This document shows, piece after piece, positions 1,349-64,000 of a stretch of 64,000 nucleotides of DNA. The stretch's first letter is position 1. Each line of letters opens with the position of its first letter. The stretch spans positions 7,936,001 to 8,000,000 of the forward strand of contig OZ024751.1 in NCBI GenBank assembly GCA_964016885.1, given 5' to 3'. A program made the position numbers and the translations under genes. The notes beneath the pieces are model-generated. The model did no database searches and was not told the DNA's origin. It worked only from the letters and a program-made list of their open reading frames with translations. The DNA comes from Eledone cirrhosa (Eukaryota).

Positions 1349-1984
1349 AGTGTAATTTTCTACACAAAGCGAAGGTTATAGAGAAAATTGAGGTTGGTAA
1401 TGGCACATGGAATATATAAGAGACAGAATACTTTTTTGTGAAAAAACATAATTTTATAAGGTAAGGAAATAATAAAGGGTATAAAAAATGTCCGGTTTCG
1501 ATGGGTCTGCAAAAGCCATCTTTTCAAATGTTGATTAAGAAAAATTAATAATACGAAGAGTTAAAATTTGAGACTTGAAAATTCAAGTATAAAATTCATT
1601 GTGGGATTTCATAGCAGTTTCCATCTTGGTAGCAACAACAGGTTGACTGCTGTGTCCCTTTCTGGTAGTGAATGAGAAGTTATTTGGGGTGTGGGTTATT
1701 TTATAAAGGTCAGATTTAGCAATCGCCAGCTGCTGGTCAGTGAGGGGGTGGAAGCAATATACATACACATATCTTCCTGTGATGGGTAGGGGAGTGGAGC
1801 GTGATAGAAAGGGATTTAGTGCACTTACACCTATATATACACACATACCTTCATCCACACATACATACATATACATATACATATATATATATATATATAT
1901 ATACATATACACACATACATACACACACACATACATATACATACACACATACACACACACACATATATATATATATATACACAT

Positions 1985-2034
<50 letters not shown>

Positions 2035-2758
2035 CCACACACATATATATACATACACATACATCCAGATACACACATACATACACACACACACACACAC
2101 ATATAAATATATACACACATATATACATATATATATATATATATATACACACATACACACACACCCCCACACATACATACACACACACACACATATATAT
2201 ATACATACACACATACAAACATACACACACACATATATATACACACACATACACACACATATATATACACACACACACACACACGCATATATATATATAT
2301 ATATACACATACGCATACATCCAGATACCCACATACATACACACACACGCACACACAATACATACATCCACATGCACACACATACACACATACACACACA
2401 CACACATACATACACCCACACACAGAGAAATGGCCTTCAAATATATATATATATATATACATACAGACACATATATTTTTTCCATAATATAAGAAGTTGG
2501 GGCAGTGAAATTAAAATGCAAGTCATTCTGATCACATTGAGTTCTTCATGTAGATTGGGCCCCGCAACCGACAGTGGTGAATTCTGTGTGCGCATGTATA
2601 TATAGACATATGTGTGTGCACGTGCAGGGTTTAACATGGATGTGTTGGTCACACAAAGGCATGGTCTGTCAATGAATAAACCTGATTCTACAGAATTGGT
2701 CTCTGGTCTTTAATAGTAGTGATTCCGTGCGTATGTGTGTTTATATTTTATGACAATT

Positions 2759-3896
2759 CTATTGGGGTGATAACCCGTTTAGTTTTGGTTTAAATTTGTT
2801 AAGGAATAGATTTTCTTTGTTTATTCTTTGTTGTTGTGTGAACGAATCTGAGCACTTGTAGAAGGGGAAGATTTTAAAGTTGGGTAGTGTCATTCCTGCG
2901 CAGTTCGCAATATGGCTGCTCAAGGGGATTTTTCTTGTGTTAGCGTCCCGGATTTGTTGGCGGTGGATGGTCATTCTTTTGCGTAATGAGGTGCCCGTCT
3001 GTCCTATGTAGTTGTGTTTGCACCCACCGCAAGTTATTGCGTAAATCAAGTTCTCCGAGTTGCAGGTGAAATTGTTTTTTACTGTAAATGTTTGGCCATC
3101 TTTGAATGTAAATGTTTGTCCTTCAGTGAGGTAGAGGCACGTTCCACAGTTTGTTCTACCACATTTGGTAACTGTAGGGTTGAGGATTGGTTTGGGTATA
3201 TTTGGTCCAGTGAGAATGCGTTTAAGTGATTTGGGTTGTCTTTTACTTTTAAGGATCTTGTGTGTTTCAAGAATAGACTTCATTTTTACATCTTTAAGTA
3301 GGATGGGGAGGTTTTTGTGTAGGTGATCAAACATTTCGGTATTTCTGGGGTTGAAAGTGGATACATATGGCAGGGTGTTGAGTGTGGTTTTCTGTTTTGG
3401 ATTGTTAAGTTGATGGGGATTTAGGTGTTTTGCCCTGTCTATTCCATTGTTGATTATTTCAAGTGGAAAGGCTCTTAAGATAAGGGTGTCTTTTAGTTCC
3501 TTTAGTCTTTGCTCCCGTTTAGGTGGATCTGATACTATGGTACATATACGTTTGGCCAAATTGTAAGGAATGTTAAGTTTTGTATGTTTTGGGTGACTTG
3601 ATGTGAAAAAGAGGTATTGCTTGGAATCTGTGGGTTTATAGAATATATCTGTATCTAATTTCCCGTCTATTACAGAGATGAGAATATCCAAGAAGGCTAA
3701 TTCCTTAGGATTGGATTCCATTGTGAATTGTATGTTATTATCTATGTTGTTTATCATGTTTTTAAACGTAGTAAGTGAGTTCATGTCTTCTTGCCATAGG
3801 ATAAAGCAGTCGTCTAGATATCTTTTCCAATTGGCTTTGAGGTGTGTGTGGAAAGAGTCTCCAAATAAGAGAAGGGACTGACTGTATATTTGTTGT
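2759..3896 (-). CDS. PLE reverse transcriptase (C-terminal part) plus GIY-YIG endonuclease, 5'-truncated
   Basis: WKRYLDD RT motif, LAFLDI, TDIFYKPTD..QYL..SSHP thumb, KCGRTNCGTC linker, NLIYAITC..C..NYIGQT..LRKRM..HR nuclease. Frame is open to the stop. The N-terminal ~60 aa of the listed ORF is inverted-pLTR/microsatellite read-through. Confidence 0.92.
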
Positions 3897-3967
3897 ATGT
3901 GTATATATATATATGTGTGTGTGTGTATGTGTGTATGTATATGTATGTGTGTGTGTATGTATGTGTG

Positions 3968-4004
<37 letters not shown>

Positions 4005-4352
4005 GTATATGTATGTATGTGTGGATGAAGGTATGTGTGTATATATAGGTGTAAGTGCACTAAATCCCTTTCTATCACGCTCCACTCTCCTACCCATCAC
4101 AGGAAGATATGTGTATGTATATTGCTTCCACCCCCTCACTGACCAGCAGCTGGCGATTGCTAAATCTGACCTTTATAAAATAACCCACACCCCAAATAAC
4201 TTCTCATTCACTACCAGAAAGGGACACAGCAGTCAACCTGTTGTTGCTACCAAGATGAAAACTGCTATGAAATCCCACAATGAATTTTATACTTGAATTT
4301 TCAAGTCTCAAATTTTAACTCTTCGTATTATTAATTTTTCTTAATATTAATC

Positions 4353-4400
4353 AACATTTGAAAAGATGGCTTTTGCAGACCCATCGAAACCGGTCATTTT
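4353..4400 (+). ncRNA. Minimal hammerhead ribozyme, U3-A8 core variant, in PLE pLTR
   Basis: aacat-TTGAAAA-gatgg(11 nt)ccatc-GAAA-ccgg-TC-atttt. The mirror copy at 1485-1532 (-) has AC at the cleavage site. Confidence 0.7.
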
Positions 4401-4497
4401 TTATACCCTTTATTATTTCCTTACCTTATAAAATTATGTTTTTTCACAAAAAAGTATTCTGTCTCTTATATATTCCATGTGCCATTACCAACCTCAA

Positions 4498-4622
<125 letters not shown>

Positions 4623-6578: not shown

Positions 6579-7210
<632 letters not shown>

Positions 7211-7212
<2 letters not shown>

Positions 7213-8395
7213 CAGTGAAACGAAATTTCATTTCTCACTCTTAGTACGGCTGACACCTAAATATAATTATGTATACGTACATACATATGTATGTACAGAC
7301 GTACAGTAGTATGTATATATATACATACATGCACATATATATATATGTACGTATGGGTTTACCGAACATTTATTATAATGCTCTGTTTATTTGTAAACAC
7401 CCTCCCCGAATTACGCCGTACAGTGTTCGGCAACCATCGTCGCCCTTTTGTTCAAGACTGACAACGGAACGATGAACTAGAATCAAGCTTATTAGCTATC
7501 GTCAGCATCGTATACCTTCCAGTTAGACGATTAAACGTTTGAAAGTATATACTTTCCTCATGCATAGTGACGGCTAAGCAGCCTAATTTGCATATCGAGT
7601 GAGTTAGTCGGCCGAGCGTACCGAAAACGATAAATGGAAAAGAATGAAATGAAATTTCATTTCTCACTCTTAGTACGGCTGATACCTAAATATAAGTATA
7701 TATACGTACATACATATATGTGTACAGACGTACAATAATATGTATATACATACATACATGAACACATATATATATGTACGTATGGGTTTACCGAACATTT
7801 ATTATAATGTTCGGTTTGTTTGTAAACAAACAACCCGAAATACGCCGGTTTTTGCCGAACACTGTACGGCGTAATTCAGGTTGTTTGTTTACAAACAAAC
7901 GCAGCATTATAATAAATGTTCGGTAAACCCATACGTACATATATATATATAGATATACATGTGCATGTATGTATATATATATATATATACATACTACTGC
8001 AAGTCTGTATACATATATGTATATAAGTATACATACTTACATTTAAGTATCAGCCGTACTAAGAATGAAACATGAAATTTCATTTCATTCTTTTCCATTT
8101 ATCGTTTTCGGTACGCCCGGCCGACTAACTCACTCGATATGCAAATTAGGCTGCTCAACCGTTAATATGCATGAGGAAAGTATATACTTTCAAACGTTCA
8201 ATCGTCTGACTGGAAGGTATACGATGCTGACGATAGCTAATAAGCTTGAAAGTAGTTCATCGTTCCGTTGTCAGGGTTGAACAAGGGGGCGACGATGTTT
8301 GCGGAGCACTGTACGGCGTAATTCGGGCTGTTTGTTTATAAACAAACCGAGTATTATAATAAATGTTCGGTAAACCCATACGTACATATATATGT
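7211..8395. mobile_element. Tandem and inverted ~430-bp HHR repeat (family A, retrozyme-like)
   Basis: Unit repeats at ~7217 and ~7646 (minus sense) and flips at ~7848 to plus sense. HHR at 7470-7510 (-) and 8222-8262 (+). Octamer ATGCAAAT at 8139-8146. Confidence 0.85.
8222..8262 (+). ncRNA. Minimal type I hammerhead ribozyme (family A)
   Basis: cgatg-CTGACGA-t-agct-aata-agct-t-GAAA-gtag-TT-catcg. Perfect 5-bp stem I; other copies have the palindromic CTAG stem III. Confidence 0.8.
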
Positions 8396-9392
8396 GTGTG
8401 TGTCTTTATTTCAAATGATTAGTGACGAACGCAGTCGGTCGAGTATAAATGTTACAATAATATAACCAACGGTTTTATGAGAAAACTGATAATGGATTTA
8501 AATTGCCAACTGTTTGATGTCATCTTACATTGAATGATATGATGGTGTGATTGATTACGTTGGGATTTATATATATTCAAGCAAGATGCATTTATGTAAC
8601 ATAAAACTGTTTAATTTCGAAAGCCGTACAACCAATTTCAGACAAGACAGAAAGATAGACGGGTGGTTAAGCTGAGCAAATACTATCAAACATAACCTGT
8701 TATCCTTGTAATGGGCATCATTTTAAATCTCCTTCATCACAACGAAATCGTTTGTTTCATTCCAAATGAGTAGAAGTCATACGTAATCGATTATTTGTAG
8801 TGGAGATATCGTTTCATTCATCCATTTGAATCCATCTTTAACCTCGAAATATCATGTGCCCTTTCTCAGTTGTAAATGCTGATTTAAGCAAGACGTATAT
8901 GGTATTATGTAGTGTTAGCTAGTCAATAATATAGCGTAAATATAAGCCTTAACTTCAATAATGATAATTCCACTTTTAAGCTAAATGAGAGATAAATACA
9001 GACTTCGGATATATTTTACCCATGAAATAATATAAAATCGACTTATAAACATATCCCAAAGTGAAATTTAGGTATTCATTATCGATTGTATAGCAACTAT
9101 CATGAAGTATAACATTCAATGATTAAATTTCATATACCACCTCATTGGGAGTGAAATTCTGCCTGAATAATTTTACAAACATATATCATATAGAGACACT
9201 GATTACTGAGATTTTCATTTTATTGTAACGGGAGAGATAATATTGAGTCGATAAAAATGTCGCATGACAGCGGTGAAATAGATAATACTATGAATATGAA
9301 GATTTGTAATGAGATATGAAAATGAAACATTGACTTCAATGAAACAATGGTGAGAAAATATATCATAAGTTCCATAATTCATGAAGTGCCAC

Positions 9393-16999: not shown

Positions 17000-18358
17000 A
17001 CAGGAGCAAGGACGGAAAGAAAAGGTTTCCACTCTCCTTGATATAAATATAAATACACATATATATACAACACTTCATCCAACACTTCATCAACCGCATG
17101 CAGTTCTCTGGATACAACCAAAGAGACAGAATCAGAGTATACAAAAGAGCCACGGAGAAGTATAAGACTCTCATAGAACTGGACATGAAAAGAATTTGCC
17201 CATTATACAGGAGCAAATCCTGGAATAGCTTAGATAGGACTAAACATCAGATAGGGAAAGCCACATCCTGCTACGACAACCAGAGATACCAGAATGTCGT
17301 GTTCGTGGACGCCACCCCTGGTGGGAAATTAGCTAATCAATGTAGAAAGGCCCTGAGGAAGACCCACTTGAAAATTAAAGAGGTAGAAAAGCCAGGAACT
17401 ACCATGAAATACCTGATCAGCAAAACATACCATTTTAAGAAAACCCACTGTACTAATAAGAAATGTGTTATATGTAAAGTAAACATCCAAATGAACTGTA
17501 AAACTAGAAATGTAGTCTATACCATAAGATGTACAGAGGGTACTTGCAGAAACATGACAAAACATATATAGGTGAGATAGCTCGAAGCTAAAGGAAAAAG
17601 AATAGACCAAAAGTGGGGGAATTAAAAGGACAAAAAAACCGTTCAGTACTATACGAACATGCCAGACAATAGCATGGCGGTAACATAGACAACATAGAAA
17701 TTAAAATAATATCTACACATACAAATGACCCAACAGGTAGGCAAATCATAGAAGCAAGCTAAACAGAAAAAAAAATGAATGGAATAACAACAATATCCAA
17801 ACAAACAATACTGACTTAAGAGAAATATAAATAAATAAATAAATAAATAAATATATACACATGCACAATAACAACAAACACATATAAGCACACACTAATA
17901 AACTAAGATCTAATAAAATAACCAAAATACAGTCACCCACCCGCGAATACACACACCAAACACTATACACACACGCAAACGCATGCGCAGAGACGAAGAC
18001 AAAAATAAATAAATAACTAAATAAACAGATAAAATAAAAATGGCGTAGACATACATTACAACAGGAGGAAACATAATAGCACCACTGATGATGTTGCAGA
18101 TGTGCAACGTAAGACATTTTTTAGTCTATATATATGTATTTATATCTGCATTTTTGACCGTTGGTCAGTCAATGATAAACATTGATGGCCAAATGAATTA
18201 ACTATGGAGATATAAGAGACACAGAAGCGAAAACGGACCAAACAGTGAGTGTGTTGCGTTATTATTTCTGGCAATATTATTACAACAATATGACCTTCCC
18301 CAAGTATAACAATATTTGTTTTGACACGATTTCATATAAAAAAAACGTTGCATAACAA

Positions 18359-28569: not shown

Positions 28570-29540
<971 letters not shown>

Positions 29541-32682: not shown

Positions 32683-32957
32683 AATGAAAGAGCTACAAGC
32701 CGTTAAAACATATCTTTATAAAGCTCTTACACATGTTTTGCACAATGGGGCTCGTCTCAGGCACATTGAGACAAAGGCAAATGAAAGAGTTACAAGCCTT
32801 TAAAACATATCTTTATAAAGCTCTTGCACATGTTTTGCACAATGGGGCTCGTCTGAGGCACATTGAGACAAAGGCAAATAAAAGAGTTACAAGCCATTAA
32901 AACATATCTTTATAAAGCTCTTACACATGTTTTGCATAATGGGCCTCGTCTGAGGCA
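32683..32957. repeat. 97-bp tandem repeat, ~2.8 copies
   Basis: Units start at 32683, 32780 and 32877 and are nearly identical. Confidence 0.93.
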
Positions 32958-33539
32958 GATACTAAGGCACACTTTTAATTAAATACCCTATACGAGTAGA
33001 ATCATTCTTTAACATCAGAATGCATATTACATATACGTTGTTAAGTATAGAAAAATGGTTGAGAGTTGTTAGAATGCTAAGGGTGGTATTTACCGGTGGT
33101 GGTGTTATGTTACTTGTCAAACTAATGACCGCTACCGGCATAGTAAGACATTTTATTTATTATTTATAGGGAATTAACGTAAGTAGGGTTAGTCGACTCA
33201 ATGTAATGAGGCGGTGTTAAGGTGTGTGTATGAGTATGAATTATTAGTAAAGTCATTATAGACTATACACAGGTTTAACTAGTGCAAAGTAGTGCCAATT
33301 ATTCGGTGTGAATCTGAAGGCCTAGAAAAGTAAAGTCAATTTAGATGGAATTTGTATAATTAAATGATCAGTTGTCTAAGAAGTTTCTTGGGTATATATA
33401 TAGTGTAATGGTTTGTAACTTTACGCTACAATTCATTCAGCAACTTGATCGATCGATGCATAGGTGGTCCCGTTTTAGTATAGTATGTGGTGTTGTTTAT
33501 TTGGTGTACTATAGTCGGTTTCCTTTAATAGCAGTGTTA

Positions 33540-33918
33540 ATAATAATTGGGTCTACTTTTGGCACAAGGCCAGCAATTATTCCAGTGTATTACTGGTACT
33601 TTATTTTATCGACCCCATAAGGATGAAAGGCAAAGTTAACCTCGGCGGGATTTGTACTCATACCATAAAGGGCCGTAACTATTTGCTGCAAACCATGGCG
33701 CCGGACCCTCTATCGATATTAATAATACTTGTTTCTACTTTTGGCACAAGGCCAGCAATTACTCCAGTATATTACTGGTACTTTATTTTATCGACCCCCT
33801 AAGTATAAAAGGCAACATTAACCTCGGCGGGATTGGAACTCAGATGATAAAGGGACGTAACTATATGCTACAAAGCATGGCGTCCGACGTTTTAGTGATA
33901 CTGCTAATTGACAGCCCA
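33540..33918 (-). mobile_element. Two tandem tRNA-derived SINE copies
   Basis: tttggcacaaggccagcaatt...actggtactttattttatcgacccc...aacctcggcggga occurs twice. Confidence 0.88.
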
Positions 33919-42329: not shown

Positions 42330-44958
42330 ATGTGTTACAGGATGGAATACGTGGAGAGTATGGACTCTCTATTGAGAAGAGACACATGCATGGGGGTGCG
42401 TGGACCGGCTATACTGGAGCATGTCACTGTGGTTGAGGTATATTGTCCTATAGGTGTAATGCATTTGACTGAAAGTCAGTTGAATCCGGGTCAACCTGTC
42501 CCGGCTCAGGCTATGTTCTTGCCTAGGGTGACGTGCAGAGTCGGGTATAAATCCCGGGTTATTTCGGTTTACCCCACAGGGCATATATAGCCATCAGTGT
42601 ATGGTGTCTGATAGCTTGAACCCGTTTCGCCGCTCTGGTCGGCGGACGCTCTGCCGCATAGCCTGAGCTTCCCGGTGGATTCCATGCGGAGAGTGTGCAC
42701 CTTCTCACGTCTCTGCACGTCATGGTTATTTCCGATTTCAGGTTGACCGCATCATCCTTCAGTCTGACTATCTCCATCCATGGACTTGTAGCCTCCATAG
42801 CCTACAATTTTTGTTATCCAGCCGACTATGCATTCGTGTGCCGAACGATACTCCAGTCAAGGGCATACGGGGTGCCTTTGTCTTTCAAGTCCCACACCAG
42901 GTCCGCTAGCCTAGTAGAGTGCCTCTTACTCCGATCTTTGAAAGGGTTCGTGTGGTTATACATCCGCAATTTAAAGGTCGTTGATGTTACGCCGATGTAG
43001 GTGCGTTTTATATTGCGTGTGCTAACCGCACATTTATATATAAGCCCCTTCGTCAGGCATCTTCCCTGCAGGGGGAACTGCATGTCTGCTCTGCAGTTGC
43101 ACGTTCTGTCGTTATGTTGTTCATTTCGGACGCCAGGCCTTTGATCTGCTAGAGCCCTCTCCCGATTCTCCGCCACTCATTCCCGCCCGGCGTTGGATTG
43201 TATGGTCTTCCGCCGGCGTGGCGGCCGCCGTGAGGGCCGGGTTGTGGTTGGAAGACCGGTCTCCGAGGGGCCCTCCGTGCTCTGATGGACGGTGATTCTT
43301 CCACCGCGGTTGACGGTCGACGTTCGTTCCCCATCTTCACCGCGTTGGTTTTGGCCATGATAGGTGCTGTGGAGAAGGAAAACTTCACCGTGTGGCGGTT
43401 GAAAATATTATGCTATCTGTTCGACGGCGGGAAGCATTCGTCTAACGCTCGGAAAAAGAGGCCTCGTATATGTCTGCATACATGCTTACAATACGGCGTG
43501 TTAAACCATGTAACGGCCTTATATCTACTCTTGTTCTTTCGTGTGTGTGTAGCAGCGTGAAATTGTTTTGGGTCTGGTTTCCGTCTCGGGTTTTGCCCGC
43601 CTATTATCCGTCCCCAATGGTGCCTCTATCTAGGTCTAATGTTGGCGTCGGGGTTACGCCTTTCGCCTACTAAGCTATTCCGTTTTGTATTGTCGGCTCT
43701 ACTGTTAGTCTCCTTAATGCTATGTGGTGTTGTTGTAGGGGCTATACCATTGCTACCGGGCCGGGTCTTCCGTCTACCGGGTGCCACGGCCGTACTTGTC
43801 CTTACCTTGTCCCTATTTCTAGTTTCCGAGACGCATCTGGTGTGCGAGCCGGGCTTTTGTCTACGTGTTCTATGTGGTCTGTCGCCCATGTGTGTATTCG
43901 TCAGTCCTATTTTCGGTGCTGTGTCCTTATGGTGATATATGCTGCTACTCGTGTTCTTGGAGGCTAGTTCCGGGTCGTTTCTTCTACCTATGGAAGTGCC
44001 ACTGCTATTGCCGTATCCGCATGCCCCGGCGCTAGGCTCTTACCCGTCTGTGGTATACACTATGCTCTCTCCGTAACCGGCCCTGCGCAGTGCCTCATTC
44101 TAATAGTTGGCGTGCTGGTTGAACGTCTGCGTTGGACGACAGGGTGGATATGCGTTTAGATACCCCTTTAACTATTGTTTCTATGAATGACTTGGGGTGG
44201 TTCGGTTGCCTGTTCACATATTTTAGCTTCTAATGTGGCTTGTGATAATGTCGGTGGATGCCCGTATTCATTTCCAGGGTAACATCCAGGAAATGCACCC
44301 TCTCAGTGCTAGAATCTCTCGTCACGGATGAGCCGGGTTGCTTAAAAAAGTGCGATATGCGCTTCATCATAAGCTCCAGCTGGTTGGGGTTTAGGGAACG
44401 GAAGGTAAAAAGTGCATCGTCTCTGTATATTCCTCCGCCGTTCCCTGGGATCTCCTCCGCTAATCTTTGGAGGAGATAGATCTCCACCAGGTCGGTCTCC
44501 TGCGCAGAGTCGCTCGACCCCATATTAATATCGAAACTGTTGAGTCTGTCCCACTTCTCCCATAACTTGTCTTCGAAGCTAATTAGCGTATTTCTAGCTG
44601 TTATTATGAGGCTTGCCTCCTCCCTAGTGAGGTTGTACTTGGCCATGTCGCTCATGAGAGCCTTGTTAACTACTTAAGGTGATACTGACGCGTAGTAATT
44701 ATCTATGTCTAATTGATTAAAATATACCTGGTGCTTGCTATCTATTAACGAGAACCAGTCAATTACCTCCTTGGTGGAGGTCCATAAGCTAAGCCTAGTT
44801 TTGTTGCTAAGTACCGGTAGTATCCTGTGTATGATAATCTTGCTGGTCATACCTATGTCTGCTTCGGAGCGTGCTATTAGCCTAACATGTAAATTAGTTC
44901 TAAAGGATCATAAATTAGTCTTTAGAACTAATCTACCTGTTAGGCTAAAATCAGGCTA
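42330..44958 (-). mobile_element. Degenerate Penelope-like element (third lineage)
   Basis: FDINMGSSDSAQ..DLVEIYLL, GIYRDD, VHFLDVTL RT motifs; TWFNTPY...IFNRHTVKFSFS linker; CNCR...PLQGRCLTKGLIYK...YIGVT...FKLRMYNH GIY-YIG. Multiple stops and frameshifts. Confidence 0.88.
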
Positions 44959-46706: not shown

Positions 46707-49026
46707 TCTGCAAAATCCTACTTCAGTGCCTCAAAAGTGGCGCAGCGGTGACCCTGGCTGTCTGATAGCTACGGTAGCGGGACTCAATGTCCTGGCAGGT
46801 TTTACCATGCTACACAGGTATCAGACTATTGGTCCTAGAGATGATTCATTATCTTCTAGAGTTCAAAAGCTAGCTAAACTGAAGAGGTACCGGCCTGCCC
46901 ACCCAGCCAGTGGGATGGTGTTATCTCATGGCTAAAACAGCACGATGAAAAGGGCTTCAGTACACTGCGAGTCAATCGGGTCACTCCACGACGGCGGAGT
47001 GCAACCCGAGCGACGAGAGACTGCTAAGAATCACAGGTTCTCGAAGGCCGCCATGGAACAGGACTAAACTCGCCATATGCACCTACAACTGCAGATCTTT
47101 GGCAGATGGGCAAGGACTGAACGACCTAATAGAGGAGAAAAGAAGATCAGGTGTGACGTGTTAGGGCTGTGCGAGACCCACCAGAAGAAGAAGGCAAGTT
47201 CGCGATGGCAAGATGGATGCGCCGTGAGACTCGGGAAAGCAGAGGGTGCCAGATCGGTCGGAGGTACAGGGCTCATCGTAAGCAAGGAATGGGCTTCGAA
47301 GGTCGCTTCTTGCCAGTTCATATCGTCACGGATTTGTGTACTGAACGTAAACCTCTCAGGGAAGGCCACCCTAAAGATCGTCCAGACCTACGCTCCCACA
47401 AGTGCCAGCGACGACGATGAATTGGAAGAATTCTGTCGCCAGCCTCACAAAGTGCTGGATGTGAAGTCCACTTAAACAGTCGTGATGGTAAACTTCAACG
47501 CAAAGGTCGGACAGGGACGGCAAGGCGAAGAGTATGTCCGAAGATTCGGCCTAGGAAAGTGAAATGAGAGGGGAGAGCGTCTGGTCACCTTGGCGCAGGC
47601 GAGACGGCTCGACATCGGAAACAGCCTATTCAGGAAGAAGGAGAAGAGATGTACTCGGGTATAGCCAAATTCTGAGCACTGAAAGGAGATCGACTACATC
47701 CTGGTCTACAAGCGATGCATACTGCTGGCCGTCTCCATCATAACGCCATTCAACACTGGCAGTGATCATCATCTGGTGAGGGCGAAGGTCGTCATCGACC
47801 GAATGAGGGAGACGAAGGCGCTGCATTTGACGTCGAAGGGAGAACGCGTCAGGATGGTCAACGAGGCGCAGCTGCAGGAAGCCATTGTGCAGGGAAACTG
47901 GCGTCAAGGAGACGACATAGACGCTGACTACGACTCACTGATAAGGCTTCCGGAAGAACTATAGCACGATGGACAACATAATAACTCTGACACAACTGCT
48001 TGAGCGAGCGAAAGAGTATAAGATGCCTCTTTGCGTGGCGCTCGTAGACTACGAGAAGGCCTTCGACAGCGTCGAAATCAATGCAGTGCTGAACTCGCCG
48101 CAGAGGCAAGGAATCGAGGAGCAATTCGTTCAACTGCTCAAGGAGGCGAATTACGGATGCACCACCGAAATAGCTCTGCTGTCATCACCCGTACGAGTGC
48201 CGGTCGAGAAGGGAGTGACGCAAGGAGATACGATGTCTCCAAAACGTTTCACTGCGTGTCTCAAGCAGATCATCAGAGGCATTGATTGGCAAGGCGGTGT
48301 CAACATCGACGGCGAGATACTTACCCACCTCCATTTCGCCGATGACATCGTACTCATCACTGAAACCACGGATCAGCTTCAGACCATGCTGACGGAGCTC
48401 GACGTCAACAGCTCTGCAGTAGGCCTCAATATGAACCGCATGAAAACGATGTTCATGCGGTCCGACAACGTACCAACAGGTCGAATGGTGGTTGGCGGTG
48501 ATGAGATAGAGAAGGTGGAGGAATACGTCTACCTGGGACAAGAAGTGAACATGCACCGAGACATTGAAATGGAGATCTCGCGGAAAATAAGGGCCGGATG
48601 GAAGGCGTTCAACGGCATAATGGATGTGCTCAAGGGGAGTTTGGACAAGACCACCCGCGCCAACCTCTTCAATAGCACAGTTTTACCTGCAATGTTATAT
48701 GGCAGTCAAACTTGGGCTACAACGAAGAGAGAAGAGCAGAGGCTGGTAACGGCTCAAAGAGTCATGGAGAGATCAATGCTAGGATTCTCGTTGAGAGAGC
48801 ACATCAGAGGCTAAGTCATCAGACAGAAGACCGGCGTGATGGACATCATCACGGAATATATGCGCAGCAAATTCAGATGGGATGGACAGGTCGCCGGGTT
48901 CACCGATAATCGGTGAACTCGCGAGTTGCCGAGTGGTACCCGCGCGAGCGGAAACGACCACTCGGAAGGCCTCCACGAAGGTGGAGTTACGATATTAGGA
49001 ATATGATTGGGACTACATGGATGAGG

Positions 49027-49030: not shown

Positions 49031-49083
<53 letters not shown>

Positions 49084-49113
49084 GTAATCAGAGTTTTTCC
49101 AATAGTAATAATA

Positions 49114-49637
49114 ACATTCGATTCGTTTGCAATTATGCAAACAAGCCTCAATTTTATAGCCATGTCAGTAGAATGAACACTTCATTCATGCTCTTATGTT
49201 GACACGTGAACAGAACTGCATACACTAATGTTTCTGGGTATCACCTTTCATCAGTACAGCTCACTGTTCACCTGCCAAACTGTCAGAGCTAGTGAAAATA
49301 TATGCTACTTTCAGAAATACACAGTGGCTGATCGGCCTCATTTGCATATTAGCAGTGCATCTGCTAATATGCAGATCTGACTGATCGGCCAGTCTGCTAA
49401 TATGCAAATCAGGCTTATCAGTCACCGTGTATTTTTGAAAATAGCATATATTTTCACAAGCTCTGATAGTTTTGGCAGGTGAACAGTGAGCTGTACTGAT
49501 GAATGGTGATACACAGAAACATCAGTGTCTGCAGTTCTGTTTACATGCCAACACAAGATCAATAATGTAGGGTTCATTCTACTGACATGGTTATAAAATT
49601 GAGGCTTATTTTCCATAATTGCCAACGAATCGAATGT
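49114..49637. mobile_element. Fold-back element with paired HHRs and central octamers (family B)
   Basis: ~240-bp arms at 49114-49355 and 49394-49637. ATTTGCAT/ATGCAAAT near the centre. HHR in each arm. Confidence 0.88.
49490..49535 (+). ncRNA. Type I hammerhead ribozyme, intact core
   Basis: gctgta-CTGATGA-atggtgatacaca-GAAA-ca-tcag-tg-TC-tgcagt. Mirror copy at 49214-49260 (-) with a GTA cleavage triplet. Confidence 0.8.
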
Positions 49638-51765: not shown

Positions 51766-52619
51766 TACTTGGAGCAAAACATTGATAACAGCATAACAAG
51801 AGGTAACCCTTTAGATTAAACAGTATTTTACTAAACTAATATAAATAAATATTTTTAATTTATAACTATACAATTTGATTTGAATATATGACGGGATCTT
51901 ATCATTTCTTTATTATCTCTTCGAATAAAATGTTTAACGGTATTCAATTCTATATATTGTGGAATTGTGATATTTATATAGTGTAGTATTTTCTTAATTT
52001 AACTGATACATATAGAAGCAGAATATTTATATTCCATCAATTACCTGTAGGTGAACACGAGAAGTGTTTTTAGAGATTACGTGAGAGAATTCTGCATAAA
52101 ATCTGAAGCTGTTTTATATTTAATCTTGTGATTTTCACACAACTTTCTATTCCAAGAGGAAAACCGATATTTAGAAATACTATCTGTTTTCATTTGAGAA
52201 ATATTTGTAAGTTTAACAGTCAATGTCTTATGAGAATTTCTGTGAGATATTCTTTGGATTTCATATCTGATTAGCAACAGTGAATGGAAAAATTAAATGA
52301 ATAACCGTAACACTAGTGCACGGCAGATGTTTTATATATATATATACGTATGTGTGTTTGTGTGTGTTTGTGTGTGTGTTTGTGTGTGTGTGTGTATGTA
52401 TGTTCACGCATAACAATCATAAAATACATAGATCCTCATTTGTGTATACATATTATAGGACCATATGCTCAGACACACACATGCACACACAAATCTATGT
52501 TTTAAGCGCCGAAACATCTATGATCTGCAGTTAACAGCTGGTGAAGCGGGTCTTTGCTTGTTTCATCCACATTACCATCTTATGCAATATATATATATAT
52601 ATATATAATTAAATGTAAG

Positions 52620-52921
52620 TATGCCTGACCGATTTAACTCACTCAATATGCAAATTAGGCTGCTCAGCCGTTAATTTTCATAAGGAAAGTATATACTTTC
52701 GAACGTTCAACTATCTGGCAGATGGGTATACGGTGCTGATGATAGCTAACAAGCTTGAAACTAGTACATATTTCCTGTGTCAGTGTTGAACAAAAAGGTG
52801 ACGTGGTTGCCTTAACACCGTATGGCATAAATTCAGGCTGTTCAGTTTGTTTACAAACGAACAAAGCGCGTTATAATAAGCGTCCGCTAAACAGATGCGT
52901 GCATATATGTATGTGTACCTG

Positions 52922-52973
<52 letters not shown>

Positions 52974-53088
52974 TGCTACTGTACGTCTGTATACATATAT
53001 GTATGTACGTATACATACATACTTACATTTAAGTAAGTGCCATACTAAGAGTGAGAAATGAAATTTCGTTTTCATTTTCTTCAACTTA
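52620..53088 (+). mobile_element. Family A single permuted monomer
   Basis: Starts just before the octamer (~52648), HHR CTGATGA...GAAA-ctag-TA at 52736-52766, ends at the segment that precedes the start in tandem copies. (TA)n on both sides. Confidence 0.85.
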
Positions 53089-54099: not shown

Positions 54100-54985
54100 G
54101 CTGTGTTATGTTACAACGTAACTTGTGTTTTGTATACACAGCTAAGAGCGGTGAACATTGTAACACGGGTTATGTTACACAGTTAATAATGGTAAACATC
54201 GTAGCGTTTGTTATGTTACACAGCTAACAGCGGTGAACATTTTAACACGTGGTATGTTACACAGTTAATAAGGGTAAACATCGTAGCATTTGTTATGTTA
54301 CACAGCTAACAGCGGTGAACATTGTAACACGTGGTATGTTACACATTACCAAGGGTAAACAACGTAGCCTATGTTGTGTTACACAGCTAACAACGGCGAA
54401 CACTGTAACACGTGGTATGTTACACAGTTAACAAGGGTAAACAACGTAGCCTGTGTTAGGTTACACAGCTAACAACCGTAAACAACGTAGCCTGTGTTAT
54501 GTTACACATCTAACAAGCGTAGACAACGTAGCCTGTGTTATGTTACCCAGCTAACAACGGTGAACATTGTAACACGTTGTATGTTTCACAGGTAACAAGG
54601 GTAAATGATGTGACTTGTGTTATATTACTGAACTAACAACGTTTAACGAGCTAATTTGTATTATGTCACACTGTTTACAACGTTAAACCATGTAATGTAT
54701 TCTATGTTACACAGCTGTAATTTTAGTATGTTACTCAATTAACAACACTAAACACTGTAACTTATTTTATATTACACAGCTAAAAAGTTAAACGATATGA
54801 CTTGTGTTATGTTTCACAGTTAACAACGGTGGACAATGTAAAATGTGTTATATTTCAGTTAACAACGGTGAACAATGTAAAATGTGTTATATTTCAGTTA
54901 ACAACGGTGAACAATGTAAAACGTGTTATATTTCAGTTAACGCCGGTGAACAATGTAAATTGTGTTATGTTACTCAGTTGACAAG
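54100..54985. repeat. Minisatellite: 41-bp monomers (A/B dimers) grading to 39-bp monomers
   Basis: tgttacac recurs at 54214, 54255 and 54296; 39-bp period at 54841/54880. Confidence 0.9.
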
Positions 54986-60249: not shown

Positions 60250-63200
60250 TGAGACGTGTGCCAGTTCGCTTGTAAGTTTTTGTTGATTTTCTAAGTAAGA
60301 AATCAAAAATTTATTGTTAAATGTATTACTATTTTATAGCATGACCCCACGTCTGGACTTTCAGACGGTTGGTCAAGTCATCTTCACCCCTCCCTGGGGT
60401 GACATTTTCGTTTTGAAAAAAATTTCGCCGGTGGAAAAAAAGCGTAAACAAACCTTGCATTCAGTCATGAACGCTGCGTTCATAACTAGAAGTGGTGGAG
60501 AGGCGGTAAGAGTATTAAGCTCGCAGTCACCTCCTCTCACCACCTCATTGAAAGACATCGAAAATGTGGACAGTTTTGAAAACACGATGTCGGACGTTGA
60601 TTGTAACATCAACACTAACACAAACACCAATAACATGCAAAATATAAACAACACCAACCAGAACAACAACAACAAAAACAATAATGACAACAAGAACAAC
60701 AACAGCAACAATGATAACAACAACACCACCACCAACAACAACATCAATGATAACAACAATACCACCACCAACAACAGCAACACGAACAACACCACGAACA
60801 CGGACAATATTTATTTTGCTCAAACCGTCCAAAAGACGGAACTGTTCACATACCTTGACATTTACAATGCTAGGGAAATGTTAAGCGACGCAAAACAGTA
60901 CGTAACTTTTGGTGAGAGCGGTGCTTTCAGCTATACTTCTCCTCAATAGTTACGCAGAGAAACTATTCTAAAAATATTAATTTTTAGGACAGTTACAAAT
61001 GTATCGAAAAAACCAGTTCAGTTATCCCAAAGCGATATTGAACTGGTTCTGAAGAATTCCTTGAAGGATATTGCCTTCATCCAAAAAGGGAAACTTTTTG
61101 GAAGCATTTCGGTGTTGTTGAAAGACCAATTGACACCACAAATATATTCTGTATCGCCGATTTTGTCCACCCCCCGTACACATTTTCCCCCACATATATG
61201 GGAAAAAGAACATTGAACATTGCACCAAATGTAAACGTCTGGTGGATTGTAACTGGCTTCATCGATTTCGACGAAGACACCCTAATTTCGGTGGGAAAGT
61301 CCTCCAGAGGCACATTCAATGGTACATGCATGGAAGTTCTGGTCCAAATGAGGCCGGAACGGATAGCTAAAATACCCCAACGTGTGCCTCTGGATGGAAT
61401 TTCACACATAAACATTTCTGTTGAGGGTAGGCGGCCTTCATGTTACCACTGTTTAAGCAGTGGTCACCTGAAGGCTTACTGTCCTCAGTTAACTAAAAAA
61501 AATGAGGCACTACTGCCAACACCCAAAACAACAACACAACCACCACCACCACAACAACAACAACCACAACCACAACAACAACACGAAACACACCCAAAAC
61601 AGTAACAACAAACCAACCTGCAAGCACAGTCCCACCCAACCCCACTCCACCTAAAACCACTGCAAAAACACCCATGAACACAACAGTTCGCCAAATCATA
61701 CTCCTTACAAATAATACAGACACCACAACGGACGAGGCCCCCACATCATCACCAAGTGATGATGAGGGAGAGCCTCTCCGTTCGAAAAGAAAGAAGAAAA
61801 GAGACCACAAGAACAAAAAAACAACAAACATCACTACAAACATACAACCACCAACACAAACAACACAAACATTATAAACAACCCCCCCCCCCGTCCGGAA
61901 AACAAAACCACGACATCACTCCAAACACAAACACCTGCAACAAAACGAAAGCTCCCACAAGAACAACAGACGAAAACCACCGCAGCACAACAAGAACATT
62001 ACACATTCATAAACAGTAAAAACAAAACTTTAATGGGCGTCATCTCCAATGACCCTTCGGTGAAAACCGAAGGGAAAACTTTTTCGAACTGTGTAGACAA
62101 ACCTAATTTAAAGGTGATTAGGGTCCCTACGGACACCTATAAGTCTTTAAAGGAAAACTTTCCTAAGGACGTAGGTAAGCCTTGTGTTAAACCCATCAAC
62201 CGCATCCTTTTAAAAAGTTTCCCTACCCTCTCACCAGACACCCCCACCTCACCAAACATCTCCGTCCCCACCCGCCGGAAACCACCACCCACACAGACAA
62301 CTCCTCTAACACCCCCGGCGGAGTTGCCGTTTTGCTGCGGAAACACTTGGGCCTCCTAACACAGACGGTATTTCTGGACTCGGAGGGTCGACTGGTGGGC
62401 CTAGACGTTGACGGTAGTGAAGGTGGAGCCATCAGGCTGGTGGCCGCATATGCCCCATACGGGACACCGCGGCCAGACTTCTTCAAACGTCTAGAGACTT
62501 TTCTGGGAACGTCCCGCTCCTTGCTTTTAGTGGGGGACAGGATACATTTGGGACTATGTGGGAGCATGTCCCGATAAAGGGGGGTGTAACATCCTCAAAC
62601 AGTTAATCGGCCGATTTGACCTGGCCGATAGATATCGACTACATTTTCCGACTGTGCCAGTGTGGAAGTGGACTAATCGCAGCGGAACATCTAGATCGTA
62701 ACTAGATAGGGTTCTAGTTAGAAATAAGGATAGGGACATGTTAAGCTGTCCACAAATGTTCATGGATGCCTATTCAGATCACAAACTAGTGACCTGCATG
62801 GTCAACCTTGATAGAACCCATAGACAAGGACCCGGCTCCTGGAAGCTGAACTTGTCGTTACCGACATGCAAAGCCTACAGTAGACGGATTAGCACTTTAG
62901 TTAAAGAGCACTTGACAGGGGCCATTGTCAACAACAGATGGTGGTATTCTCTCAAGAGGGCAGTTAATTAGACTCGTTAGTTTTTAATAAAGAATTAGCG
63001 TTAGATAGAAATAGAACTGAGAAAGAACTGGTAGATAAAGTAGAAGAGGCAATTAGAAATGGCAACGTAACCAGCGTACTAGCAACGAGAACAGCCTTGG
63101 ACCAGTTCTTCGACGCAAAGCATGAGGGCTGCGTTGTCAGAAGCAAAATACGTGCTCTGTTAGCTGGGCCCGAGTGACGGAGGCAAAAAGTGGCAACAGT

Positions 63201-64000
63201 ACACGATTCGGTCTTTGAAGGACCAAAACGGACGCGTGATACGTGAGCCGAAGCAGATGTGTGCGGCCTTTCAGCGGCATTTTGCTCAGCTATTCGGGCA
63301 GGGCGGCGCGCCGGGAGAGGCTATGGATTTCGGTCCATACCTCGACGGCCTACCGCGACTCTCGGACAGCGAGGCAAAGTTCTGCGAAAAGCCGATTTCA
63401 GCCGCTGAGATAGGGGACACGTTGAGCCAATGCGGCTGACGCAAATCTCCAGGTCTCGACGGTCTACCCTACGAATTTTACGTAGCAATGCCGGACTTAT
63501 TCTCCGGTCTCCTGGAAGTGGTCTACTGCAACTGGCAACATAATGGGAAAATTCCTAGTTCTGTGACCGGGCGCGGGGTCACACTAGTCATGAAGGACGA
63601 GATGACATAACCAACTCCGGCCCATAACTCTGCTAAACACAGAGTTACAGATTTTGGCCAAGGTGTTGGCAAAGAGGCTTCCGCTTGTCGTCGAGAACCT
63701 GGTGGGAGAAATGCAGACATGCGCAATCCCGATCATGTCTATACACGACAACCTCCTCCTCATGCGATACATTATAGGGAGTGTAGGGTGTAAACCCGGC
63801 TTCGGTGGGGCCCTGATCAACTTGGATCAGTCTAAGGATTTCGATAGGGTTGACCATCGTTACCTGGATGCGGTGCTCGAGACGGCAGGCTTTGGAAACG
63901 TGTTCAGGGGCTGGATTGCTGCAATGCATAACAGCAACATCTGCTCAAGGGTTAAGGTGAACGGCTACCTCTCGGAGCCGTTCCACTCACGCGATCCATT
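60250..64000 (+). mobile_element. Tx1/L1-clade LINE, degenerate, truncated by the window end
   Basis: ORF1 remnant with CCHC knuckle CYHCLSSGHLKAYC; endonuclease DSEGRLV..IRLVAAYAP..SDHKLV..GPGSWKLN; RT KSPGLDGLPYEFY..KILAKVLAKRL..DQSKDFDRVDH. Many stops and frameshifts. The 5' boundary is approximate. Confidence 0.9.

Follow-up and report, generated by a model that had tools for sequence, protein, structure and literature searches.

A degenerate retrozyme copy with an snRNA-type promoter-like module and a Penelope-like insertion footprint in the genome of Eledone cirrhosa

The window described here is a stretch of 64,000 nucleotides of the Eledone cirrhosa genome (contig OZ024751.1, positions 7,936,001 to 8,000,000). 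The locus at 7211-8395 is occupied by copies of a short non-coding repeat unit carrying a hammerhead ribozyme motif and a module resembling snRNA promoters. Two further insertions of the same unit, one insertion of a related family and a fragment of a Penelope-like element (PLE) are present in the window. The features are listed in Table 1, where phase 1 is the base directly 3' of the predicted hammerhead cut.

Table 1. Features of the retrozyme-like insertions and of the candidate helper element, in positions of the window.
Feature	Position	Strand	Remarks
Neptune-type PLE ORF (RT + GIY-YIG), 5'-truncated	2762..3901	-	candidate helper type
(TA)n target microsatellite	7145..7209		flanks tailed 3' end of minus arm
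Inverted arm, 1.5 units, phase 57 to ~274	7208..7847	-	ends at long (tailed) site
Minus-arm hammerhead	7469..7511	-	GAAA core lost, predicted inactive
Minus-arm promoter-like module (octamer element + TATA)	7546..7594	-	
Plus arm, 1.24 units, phase 42 to 143 of next unit	7852..8400	+	
Short (S) 3'-end site, internal in plus arm	8036..8045	+	
57-nt 'tail' finishing at long (T) 3'-end site	8046..8101	+	
Octamer-containing upstream element	8138..8149	+	matches host U6/U6atac/MRP promoters
TCAGY-core position of host U1/U2/U5 promoters (-57)	8154..8161	+	
TATA element	8181..8186	+	-31 from predicted start 8212
Type I hammerhead, extended helix I	8205..8275	+	core 8227-8233, 8248-8251
Second insertion: short inverted arm + 1.5 units, short-site end	28662..29486	+	
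Hammerhead of second insertion	29220-29262	+	
Family 2, head-to-head insertion, same promoter module	49078..49600		
Third insertion: very short inverted arm (short site) + ~1 unit	52610..53088	+	
Hammerhead of third insertion	52730-52772	+	

The motifs named in the original prediction (ATGCAAAT at 8139-8146, TATATA at 8181-8186, a G at 8212 and a hammerhead-type motif at 8221-8263) are all present, as are the further copies at 28.66-29.49 kb and 52.61-53.09 kb. The arrangement differs from the direct tandem that had been described at 7211-8395, a minus-strand 1.5-mer (7847 to ~7208) being set head to head with a plus-strand 1.24-mer (7852-8400). The 3' end of the plus arm is lost within an internal microsatellite, and the short site in this arm would be the first reverse-transcription start. 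The plus arm has a T4 run at 8091-8094, within the tail, which is T6 in the main subfamily, and a second T4 at 8105-8108. The TCAGY core, TCAGC in the family, is mutated to TCAAC. The copy at 52.6 kb had been taken for a single monomer; its plus-strand part is indeed about one unit long and ends at the tailed site in (TA)n, but a short inverted arm ending at the short site stands at 52610-52619.

The hammerhead of the plus arm, with a predicted cut at 8257/8258, has a broken helix III and carries G at 15.2 plus U17 (8252/8257). GAAA is lost in the minus arm, and the copies at 29.2 and 52.7 kb have helix I mismatches. Two hammerheads in tandem on one strand were not found anywhere within the 64-kb window. 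With damage in all four hammerheads of the window, and no tandem partner for any of them on its own strand, the locus at 7211-8395 is probably dead.

A consensus built from 24 segments gave a unit length of 429 nt, and no ORF of at least 100 aa was found at 7211-8395, in agreement with the predicted non-coding unit of about 430 bp; the other copies in the window contain low-complexity frames only. Intact hammerhead core patterns of two subfamily groups have 4,117 and 5,815 exact matches in the genome (about 9,900 in total), and the 3' anchor of the unit has at least 16,078 in the microsatellite-rich 3.0-Gb assembly. Reversed control patterns had 0 matches genome-wide for the cores and for the 3' anchor alike, so that the copy pattern is real and far above chance. 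The mapped sample comprised 224 pieces at 141 loci, drawn from the first matches listed on contig C1, after removal of duplicates, of pieces truncated by the edge of a locus and of those less than 78-80% identical.

Array sizes range from dimers to approximately 50-mers, as expected for the tandem units of non-LTR retrozymes, and the length of 429 nt slightly exceeds the range of 150-400 bp given for that class. The G+C content is low and the unit is highly self-paired (circular fold z -8.8, in part a product of the AT-rich core). Satellite-like arrays of the family studied here, family 1, consist of about 50 units (G000:C1:51.772-51.794 Mb, L382-L384) and about 11 units (L387), the former containing, together with its neighbor, 42 intact cores. 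Both arrays have a higher-order periodicity, which suggests later local amplification, and the 11-mer retains one short and one long end.

The hammerhead of the family is of type I, with the core CUGAYGA / GAAA / GUA or GUU, a palindromic CUAG loop III and a U.U at the base of helix II. It had been called minimal, a description that fits neither the UAAYAA loop II nor the long helix I, which contains an internal loop. The full core and three helices that define the hammerhead of a non-LTR retrozyme are found in the family, and the window copies are damaged versions of it. In 14 sequences from three families, hand-picked and related to one another, both partners change in 8 of 11 base pairs, and pairing holds in 95.5% of cells, compared with 27-42% in slid controls. 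Variation is 0.019 in the core and 0.048 in the body among copies that had not been selected on the core. The fold is not exceptional against shuffled sequences (z -0.4 to -1.8). A search with Rfam, proposed earlier as a check, yielded no hammerhead match to family 1 and none among the 150 of 211 window matches listed; the miRNA matches that it returned were dismissed as AT-repeat hairpins below gathering scores. By analogy with axolotl ribozymes, in which a palindromic loop III or U.U are weak features and dimers are reported to cleave better (PMC7229834), the hammerhead of the unit would be cleaved as a dimer. For Xenopus retrozymes, 8 of 9 dimers are reported to have failed to cleave in vitro.

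Across the mapped loci, the 3' ends of the unit are fixed. The 224 pieces end at a short site (phase 205-225; 91 pieces), at a long site (phase 257-276; 101 pieces) or elsewhere (32 pieces). The short and long sites, separated by 57 nt and with windows that together make up less than 10% of the unit, account for 192 of the 224 ends. A (TA)3 or longer run lies within 20 nt of the 3' end in 78 of 91 short and 85 of 101 long cases (163/192). The 141 loci include 68 head-to-head pairs, 46 of them with both ends classed; a short end is combined with a long one in 43 of these 46 (p 2e-10; this and the other p values are optimistic, since the copies have shared ancestry, and the sample is one contig). 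Many insertions have a single arm, and 5' ends and arm lengths are variable. The 'permuted' start phases of the original prediction are 5' truncations against two fixed 3' ends.

The traits observed at the mapped loci, namely fixed 3' ends, a tail on one end, 5' truncation, partial tandems, an inverted 5' arm and a microsatellite target, are those of PLE insertions. The PLE tail has been described as unique to PLEs and mapped to two internal reverse-transcription start sites (Frangieh et al. 2024, PMC11167929). Mobilization in trans by PLE enzymes, as first proposed, is supported by the two-site 3' ends, the (TA)n flanks and the head-to-head pairing across the genome.

A very young Neptune-type PLE is present in the window (~1390-4500, minus strand) and at L211-L240. 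It has an intact open frame of 777 aa, and more than 60 copies among the matches listed are identical over a query of 374 aa. Like the retrozyme unit, its copies have two 3' ends and (TA)n flanks; its ends also come after T4 runs, and it possesses a minimal hammerhead-like motif of its own with U3-A8 and a long TG/TA-rich 3' region. The Neptune clade is taken to be the correct placement from the Zn-finger linker and the C-terminal GIY-YIG domain. Named relatives of the protein are few and stem from an oyster and from assemblies with bivalve-symbiont labels. No terminal similarity was found between the unit and this element or three neighboring PLE fragments. The true helper may be older, or may belong to another PLE family, because the youngest PLE has no sequence in common with the unit and its copies are identical while those of the unit are about 91% alike.

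The PLE profile matched 12 of 169 loci. A PLE ORF flanked by the unit, the arrangement expected if most copies were attached to such an ORF, was found in 0 of the 169 (three of the 12 profile matches were extended; the other nine were weaker). Candidates at L104, L142 and L196 proved to be downstream neighbors on the same strand, each ending in its own termini, and a cluster at C1:22.6 Mb that had the look of a PLE tandem consisted of independent insertions. Since the PLE neighbors that were followed up end in their own termini, the unit is not an ordinary pLTR. Some loci share 3' flanks, which start at different offsets and involve both end types; they are tentatively put down to further repeats lying in that (TA)n.

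Three further hammerhead families occur in the same genome. Family 2 (also at L271-L294; 1,880 first-look candidates) has a different hammerhead, possesses octamer, TCAG and TATA motifs with a multiplied octamer-TCAG block, and ends in (TA)n at either of two 3' sites separated by about 33 nt, the long one with T4-C-T6. Family 3 (L063:3780-4700, L053:1900-2500) has a 470-nt unit about 66% like family 1, an octamer and a TATA element, and no TCAG; its GUC hammerhead is canonical and matches Rfam HH9 at E 2e-6, which falls short of the gathering score. T-runs are found at the long end in families 1-3. Family 4 (L182:1-760, L201:750-1350) is a 310-nt tandem unit with a U.U hammerhead and a CGCG loop III, without octamer, TCAG or TATA module. 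In one family 2 copy (L319:900-1630) a U6atac retrocopy stands head to head in place of the inverted arm, and another U6atac retrocopy (L317) directly follows (TA)n, which suggests that PLE enzymes also copy host small RNAs.

Two more repeated hammerhead-like motifs in the window belong to other repeat families (340(-), 23217(+), 10907(-), 18687(-)). Other retroelement fragments lie at 17053-17571(+), 42826-44673(-), 47068-48814(+) and 61042-63320; they comprise an RT with Pfam RVT_1, pieces resembling PLEs, of which one weakly matches GIY-YIG, and a LINE-like ORF1/endonuclease region judged by eye. Minisatellites were noted at 32683-32957 (97-bp period), 33537-33882 (182-bp) and 54113-54984 (41/39-bp).

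The promoter-like module was compared with host snRNA genes located by Rfam. Pol III was represented by five promoter types (three U6, one U6atac and MRP) and Pol II by 12 (three U2, four U5 and five of the 11 distinct U1), after exclusion of 3 of the 8 U6 loci listed and 5 of the 6 U6atac loci as presumed retrocopies or interrupted genes. All five Pol III types have ATG[CG][AT]AAT at -76 to -78 and TATA at -30, and none has TCAGY; all 12 Pol II types have TCAGT at -55 to -58, and none has the proximal octamer. The host Pol III grammar reads TATGCAAAT[TG]AG near -78 plus TATA at -30, and that of Pol II reads TCAGT near -57 with a TATA-like element near -30 and often AATTAAAT near -88 (loci L241-L243, L315, L321, L295-L297, L322-L332 and L352-L358). 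Host U1, U2, U5 and U6 genes occur in tandem arrays. TATA was discarded as a marker of Pol III, as U1, U2 and U5 also have TATA-like elements near -30.

In family 1, with positions counted from phase 384 (8212 in the window), the octamer lies at -73, followed by TCAGC at -57 and TATATA at -31; the element that matches the Pol III octamer spans 11-13 nt. The snRNA-type nature of the module is supported by these matches of octamer, TCAG and TATA to host snRNA promoter motifs, and the predicted start near 8212 is compatible with the spacing seen in host snRNA promoters. The chance of TCAGC at -57 together with TATA at -31 is approximately 0.014; the octamer is present as well, unlike in host Pol II promoters. 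Between octamer and TATA the retrozyme has 41-43 nt compared with 46-48 nt in host Pol III genes, a distance shorter by 4-6 nt. The three motifs are less variable than the surrounding region (28/840 compared with 223/3508, p 5e-4). Avoidance of T4 in the body, looked for as support for Pol III, was not significant in three families. Judged from these motifs, the module appears to be a hybrid of a Pol III-type octamer element, a TCAG core placed as in Pol II snRNA genes, and TATA. Pol II in snRNA mode is somewhat favored over Pol III, because the TCAG core is placed as in U1, U2 and U5 and a T6 run would stop Pol III; a small share of probability falls to neither. In insects, small differences in a shared element are reported to set polymerase choice (PMC1761439), and motif matching of this kind therefore cannot settle the polymerase.

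The pieces also bear on the RNA that was copied. Among 68 3'-anchored pieces, 41 reach upstream of the predicted start and 25 are longer than one unit. No pile-up of 5' ends was seen at the cleavage site (3/48), and enrichment of 5' ends at the predicted start was not significant (8/134, p 0.16). Units and arms within an insertion are 95-96% identical, compared with 91% between loci, and sites diagnostic of subfamilies are shared inside one insertion in 734/777 and 472/531 comparisons, against 0.61 between loci. Since copies read through the cleavage site and the promoter, and since units and arms share diagnostic sites, these data imply a template continuous across the ribozyme site with the promoter included, which would be either a circle or an uncleaved multimer. 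The genomic data are compatible with either. An uncleaved RNA was reported as the dominant substrate of the anole PLE in vitro (PMC11167929), and circles are reported to be abundant for coral, mussel and axolotl retrozymes (PMC7229834). The RNA is probably circular.

It is accordingly considered probable, though by no means assured, that the locus at 7211-8395 is a degenerate copy of a non-LTR retrozyme, likely with an internal snRNA-type promoter, likely copied in trans by a PLE enzyme into (TA)n from a probably circular RNA of unit length. The identity of the element as a retrozyme, as originally predicted, is supported by the non-coding unit, the tandem copies, the covarying hammerhead-type core and the anatomy of the copies genome-wide. 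Transcription of a source locus with at least two tandem units would start near phase 384, with Pol II acting in snRNA mode as the likeliest polymerase; the T6 run of the main subfamily would stop Pol III ahead of the next ribozyme. The weak hammerheads, with their palindromic CUAG loop III and U.U, would cut as dimers and release a 429-nt monomer including the promoter sequence, which would be ligated into a circle. The PLE protein would nick (TA)n, and reverse transcription would begin internally at either of the sites 57 nt apart and run round the template for 0.1 to more than 5 units. Two cDNAs of the same template, one per start site, would join head to head. Rare copies with two intact ribozymes would become new sources, and some would expand into satellite-like arrays.

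A U6-type Pol III promoter would change this account in the polymerase only: most transcripts would stop at the T-run of the long site, and rare read-through would supply the unit-length template. Such a promoter is rather unlikely, even with the 11-13-nt octamer element in 5/5 Pol III and 0/12 Pol II types, the T-runs at the long end in families 1-3 and a family 3 without TCAG on its side. The 41/68 pieces with sequence from beyond the T-run as well as from ahead of the start, the T6 in the main subfamily and family 2 and the spacing 4-6 nt below that of host Pol III genes speak against it, and Neptune ends follow T4 runs too, so that U-runs may be priming sites. The motifs could also be inert and the RNA derived by read-through of host genes. 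This would be in keeping with a review in which retrozymes seem to be without promoters (PMC7761336), with the module missing in family 4 and with a spacing unlike that of host genes, yet it is improbable given that the motifs recur at host-like positions in three families of at most about 66% identity, that they vary less than their surroundings and that the octamer-TCAG block is multiplied in family 2.

An uncleaved linear multimer might instead have served the same PLE-mobilized element as template, the hammerhead merely trimming ends with no circle formed. It would explain the missing 5' pile-up at the cleavage site, long arrays are available as possible sources, and the anole PLE is reported to have used mostly uncleaved RNA (PMC11167929). 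A covarying, conserved ribozyme core needs a selected use, however, and coral, mussel and axolotl circles are reported as abundant (PMC7229834); diagnostic sites are shared within an insertion, though a homogeneous array would do likewise. This template is judged unlikely. Far less probable still is an ordinary pseudo-LTR shed by an autonomous PLE, the copies being truncated PLE insertions. That origin would account for the PLE insertion signature and has a parallel in the reported pLTR origin of Xenopus retrozymes, but multimers pass from unit into unit with no ORF between, and 12/169 loci match the PLE profile, the three extended neighbors ending in their own termini. A MITE or foldback DNA transposon, to which the terminal inverted repeats of the 68 head-to-head pairs might point, is hardly credible and is largely refuted by the unequal short and long ends; the arms also vary in length, many copies are one-armed, and direct multimers occur together with a ribozyme conserved on one strand.

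The class of element described here is already known, retrozymes having been described in molluscs, corals and amphibians; within the literature searched, two points appear to be new, the PLE tail footprint on an element with no sequence similarity found to a helper, and an internal promoter of hybrid make-up that was compared with host genes. Newt satellite 2 has a promoter composed of octamer and PSE, and that of Schistosoma Sm-alpha is of the A/B-box type. Satellite 2 resembles the unit in being a hammerhead repeat that has an snRNA-type promoter inside it, for which Pol II is reported (Coats et al. 1994, as cited in PMC2220036); the module of the unit differs in adding TATA and an element otherwise found at Pol III genes only. 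Sm-alpha is likewise a hammerhead repeat with its own promoter, reported as internal Pol III (PMC2220036), whereas that of the unit would be an upstream snRNA-type promoter carried within the unit.

The non-LTR retrozymes of coral, mussel and axolotl, for which PLEs were proposed as helper (Cervera and de la Pena 2020, PMC7229834), resemble the unit as short non-coding tandem elements with a type I hammerhead, low GC, strong self-pairing and thousands of copies. In axolotl, HHR_Amex1 has a loop III like that of the unit and HHR_Amex2 a U.U like that of the unit (PMC7229834). Metazoan non-LTR retrozymes are given as 170-400 nt, compared with 429 nt here (PMC7229834), and unlike them the unit is found mostly as dispersed insertions of 0.3-2 units with a defined PLE footprint and an internal promoter module. 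In the sources cited, a helper role of PLEs has so far been argued from co-occurrence and similarity, with read-through transcription assumed, and a review of 2020 states that retrozymes seem promoterless (PMC7761336). EN+ PLEs (Neptune, Poseidon) share with the unit 5' truncation, partial tandems, an inverted 5' arm, a tail on one end, AT-rich or (TA)n targets and a hammerhead (10.1101/2021.04.23.441226; PMC11167929); they differ in their ORF, a tail of 30-40 nt and a minimal hammerhead, against no ORF, a 57-nt tail and an extended hammerhead in the unit. Vertebrate (Xenopus) retrozymes were linked to pLTRs by co-occurrence and sequence similarity (Li et al. 2026, 10.64898/2026.07.22.740005). 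Similarity to pLTRs is reported for these and for the non-autonomous Chlamys elements (MRC1), whereas none was found for the unit, in which the link is the insertion footprint. Retrozymes of cephalopods, a tail signature in retrozymes and a retrozyme-borne U6-like element were not the subject of any paper that the literature search turned up, although supplements (e.g. that of PMC7229834) may list such species. The terms ribozyme, retrozyme and hammerhead occur 0 times in the main text on the Octopus vulgaris repeat annotation (PMC13282606), and 235 hammerheads were counted without analysis in the giant squid genome (PMC6962438).

A wider reading, put forward tentatively, is that the family consists of mobile circular RNAs with a chimeric snRNA promoter (Pol III octamer and Pol II core), in which new dimers express themselves and a PLE dimer copies the circle in rolling fashion, each start site giving one arm from the same circle. 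If true, retrozyme circles and PLE enzymes would for the first time be connected by a direct footprint, with no sequence shared with the helper. Insertions with the pair of ends specific to PLEs are numerous here, and the same genome encodes an intact, active PLE protein, so that trans-mobilization and circle templating would become testable in vitro. The hybrid promoter would be a natural probe of how Pol II or Pol III is chosen for snRNA genes in this lineage. For guide-RNA expression, the consensus of the host U6 promoters could be of use. The mode of transcription of retrozymes and the enzyme that spreads them are general questions on which this family bears.
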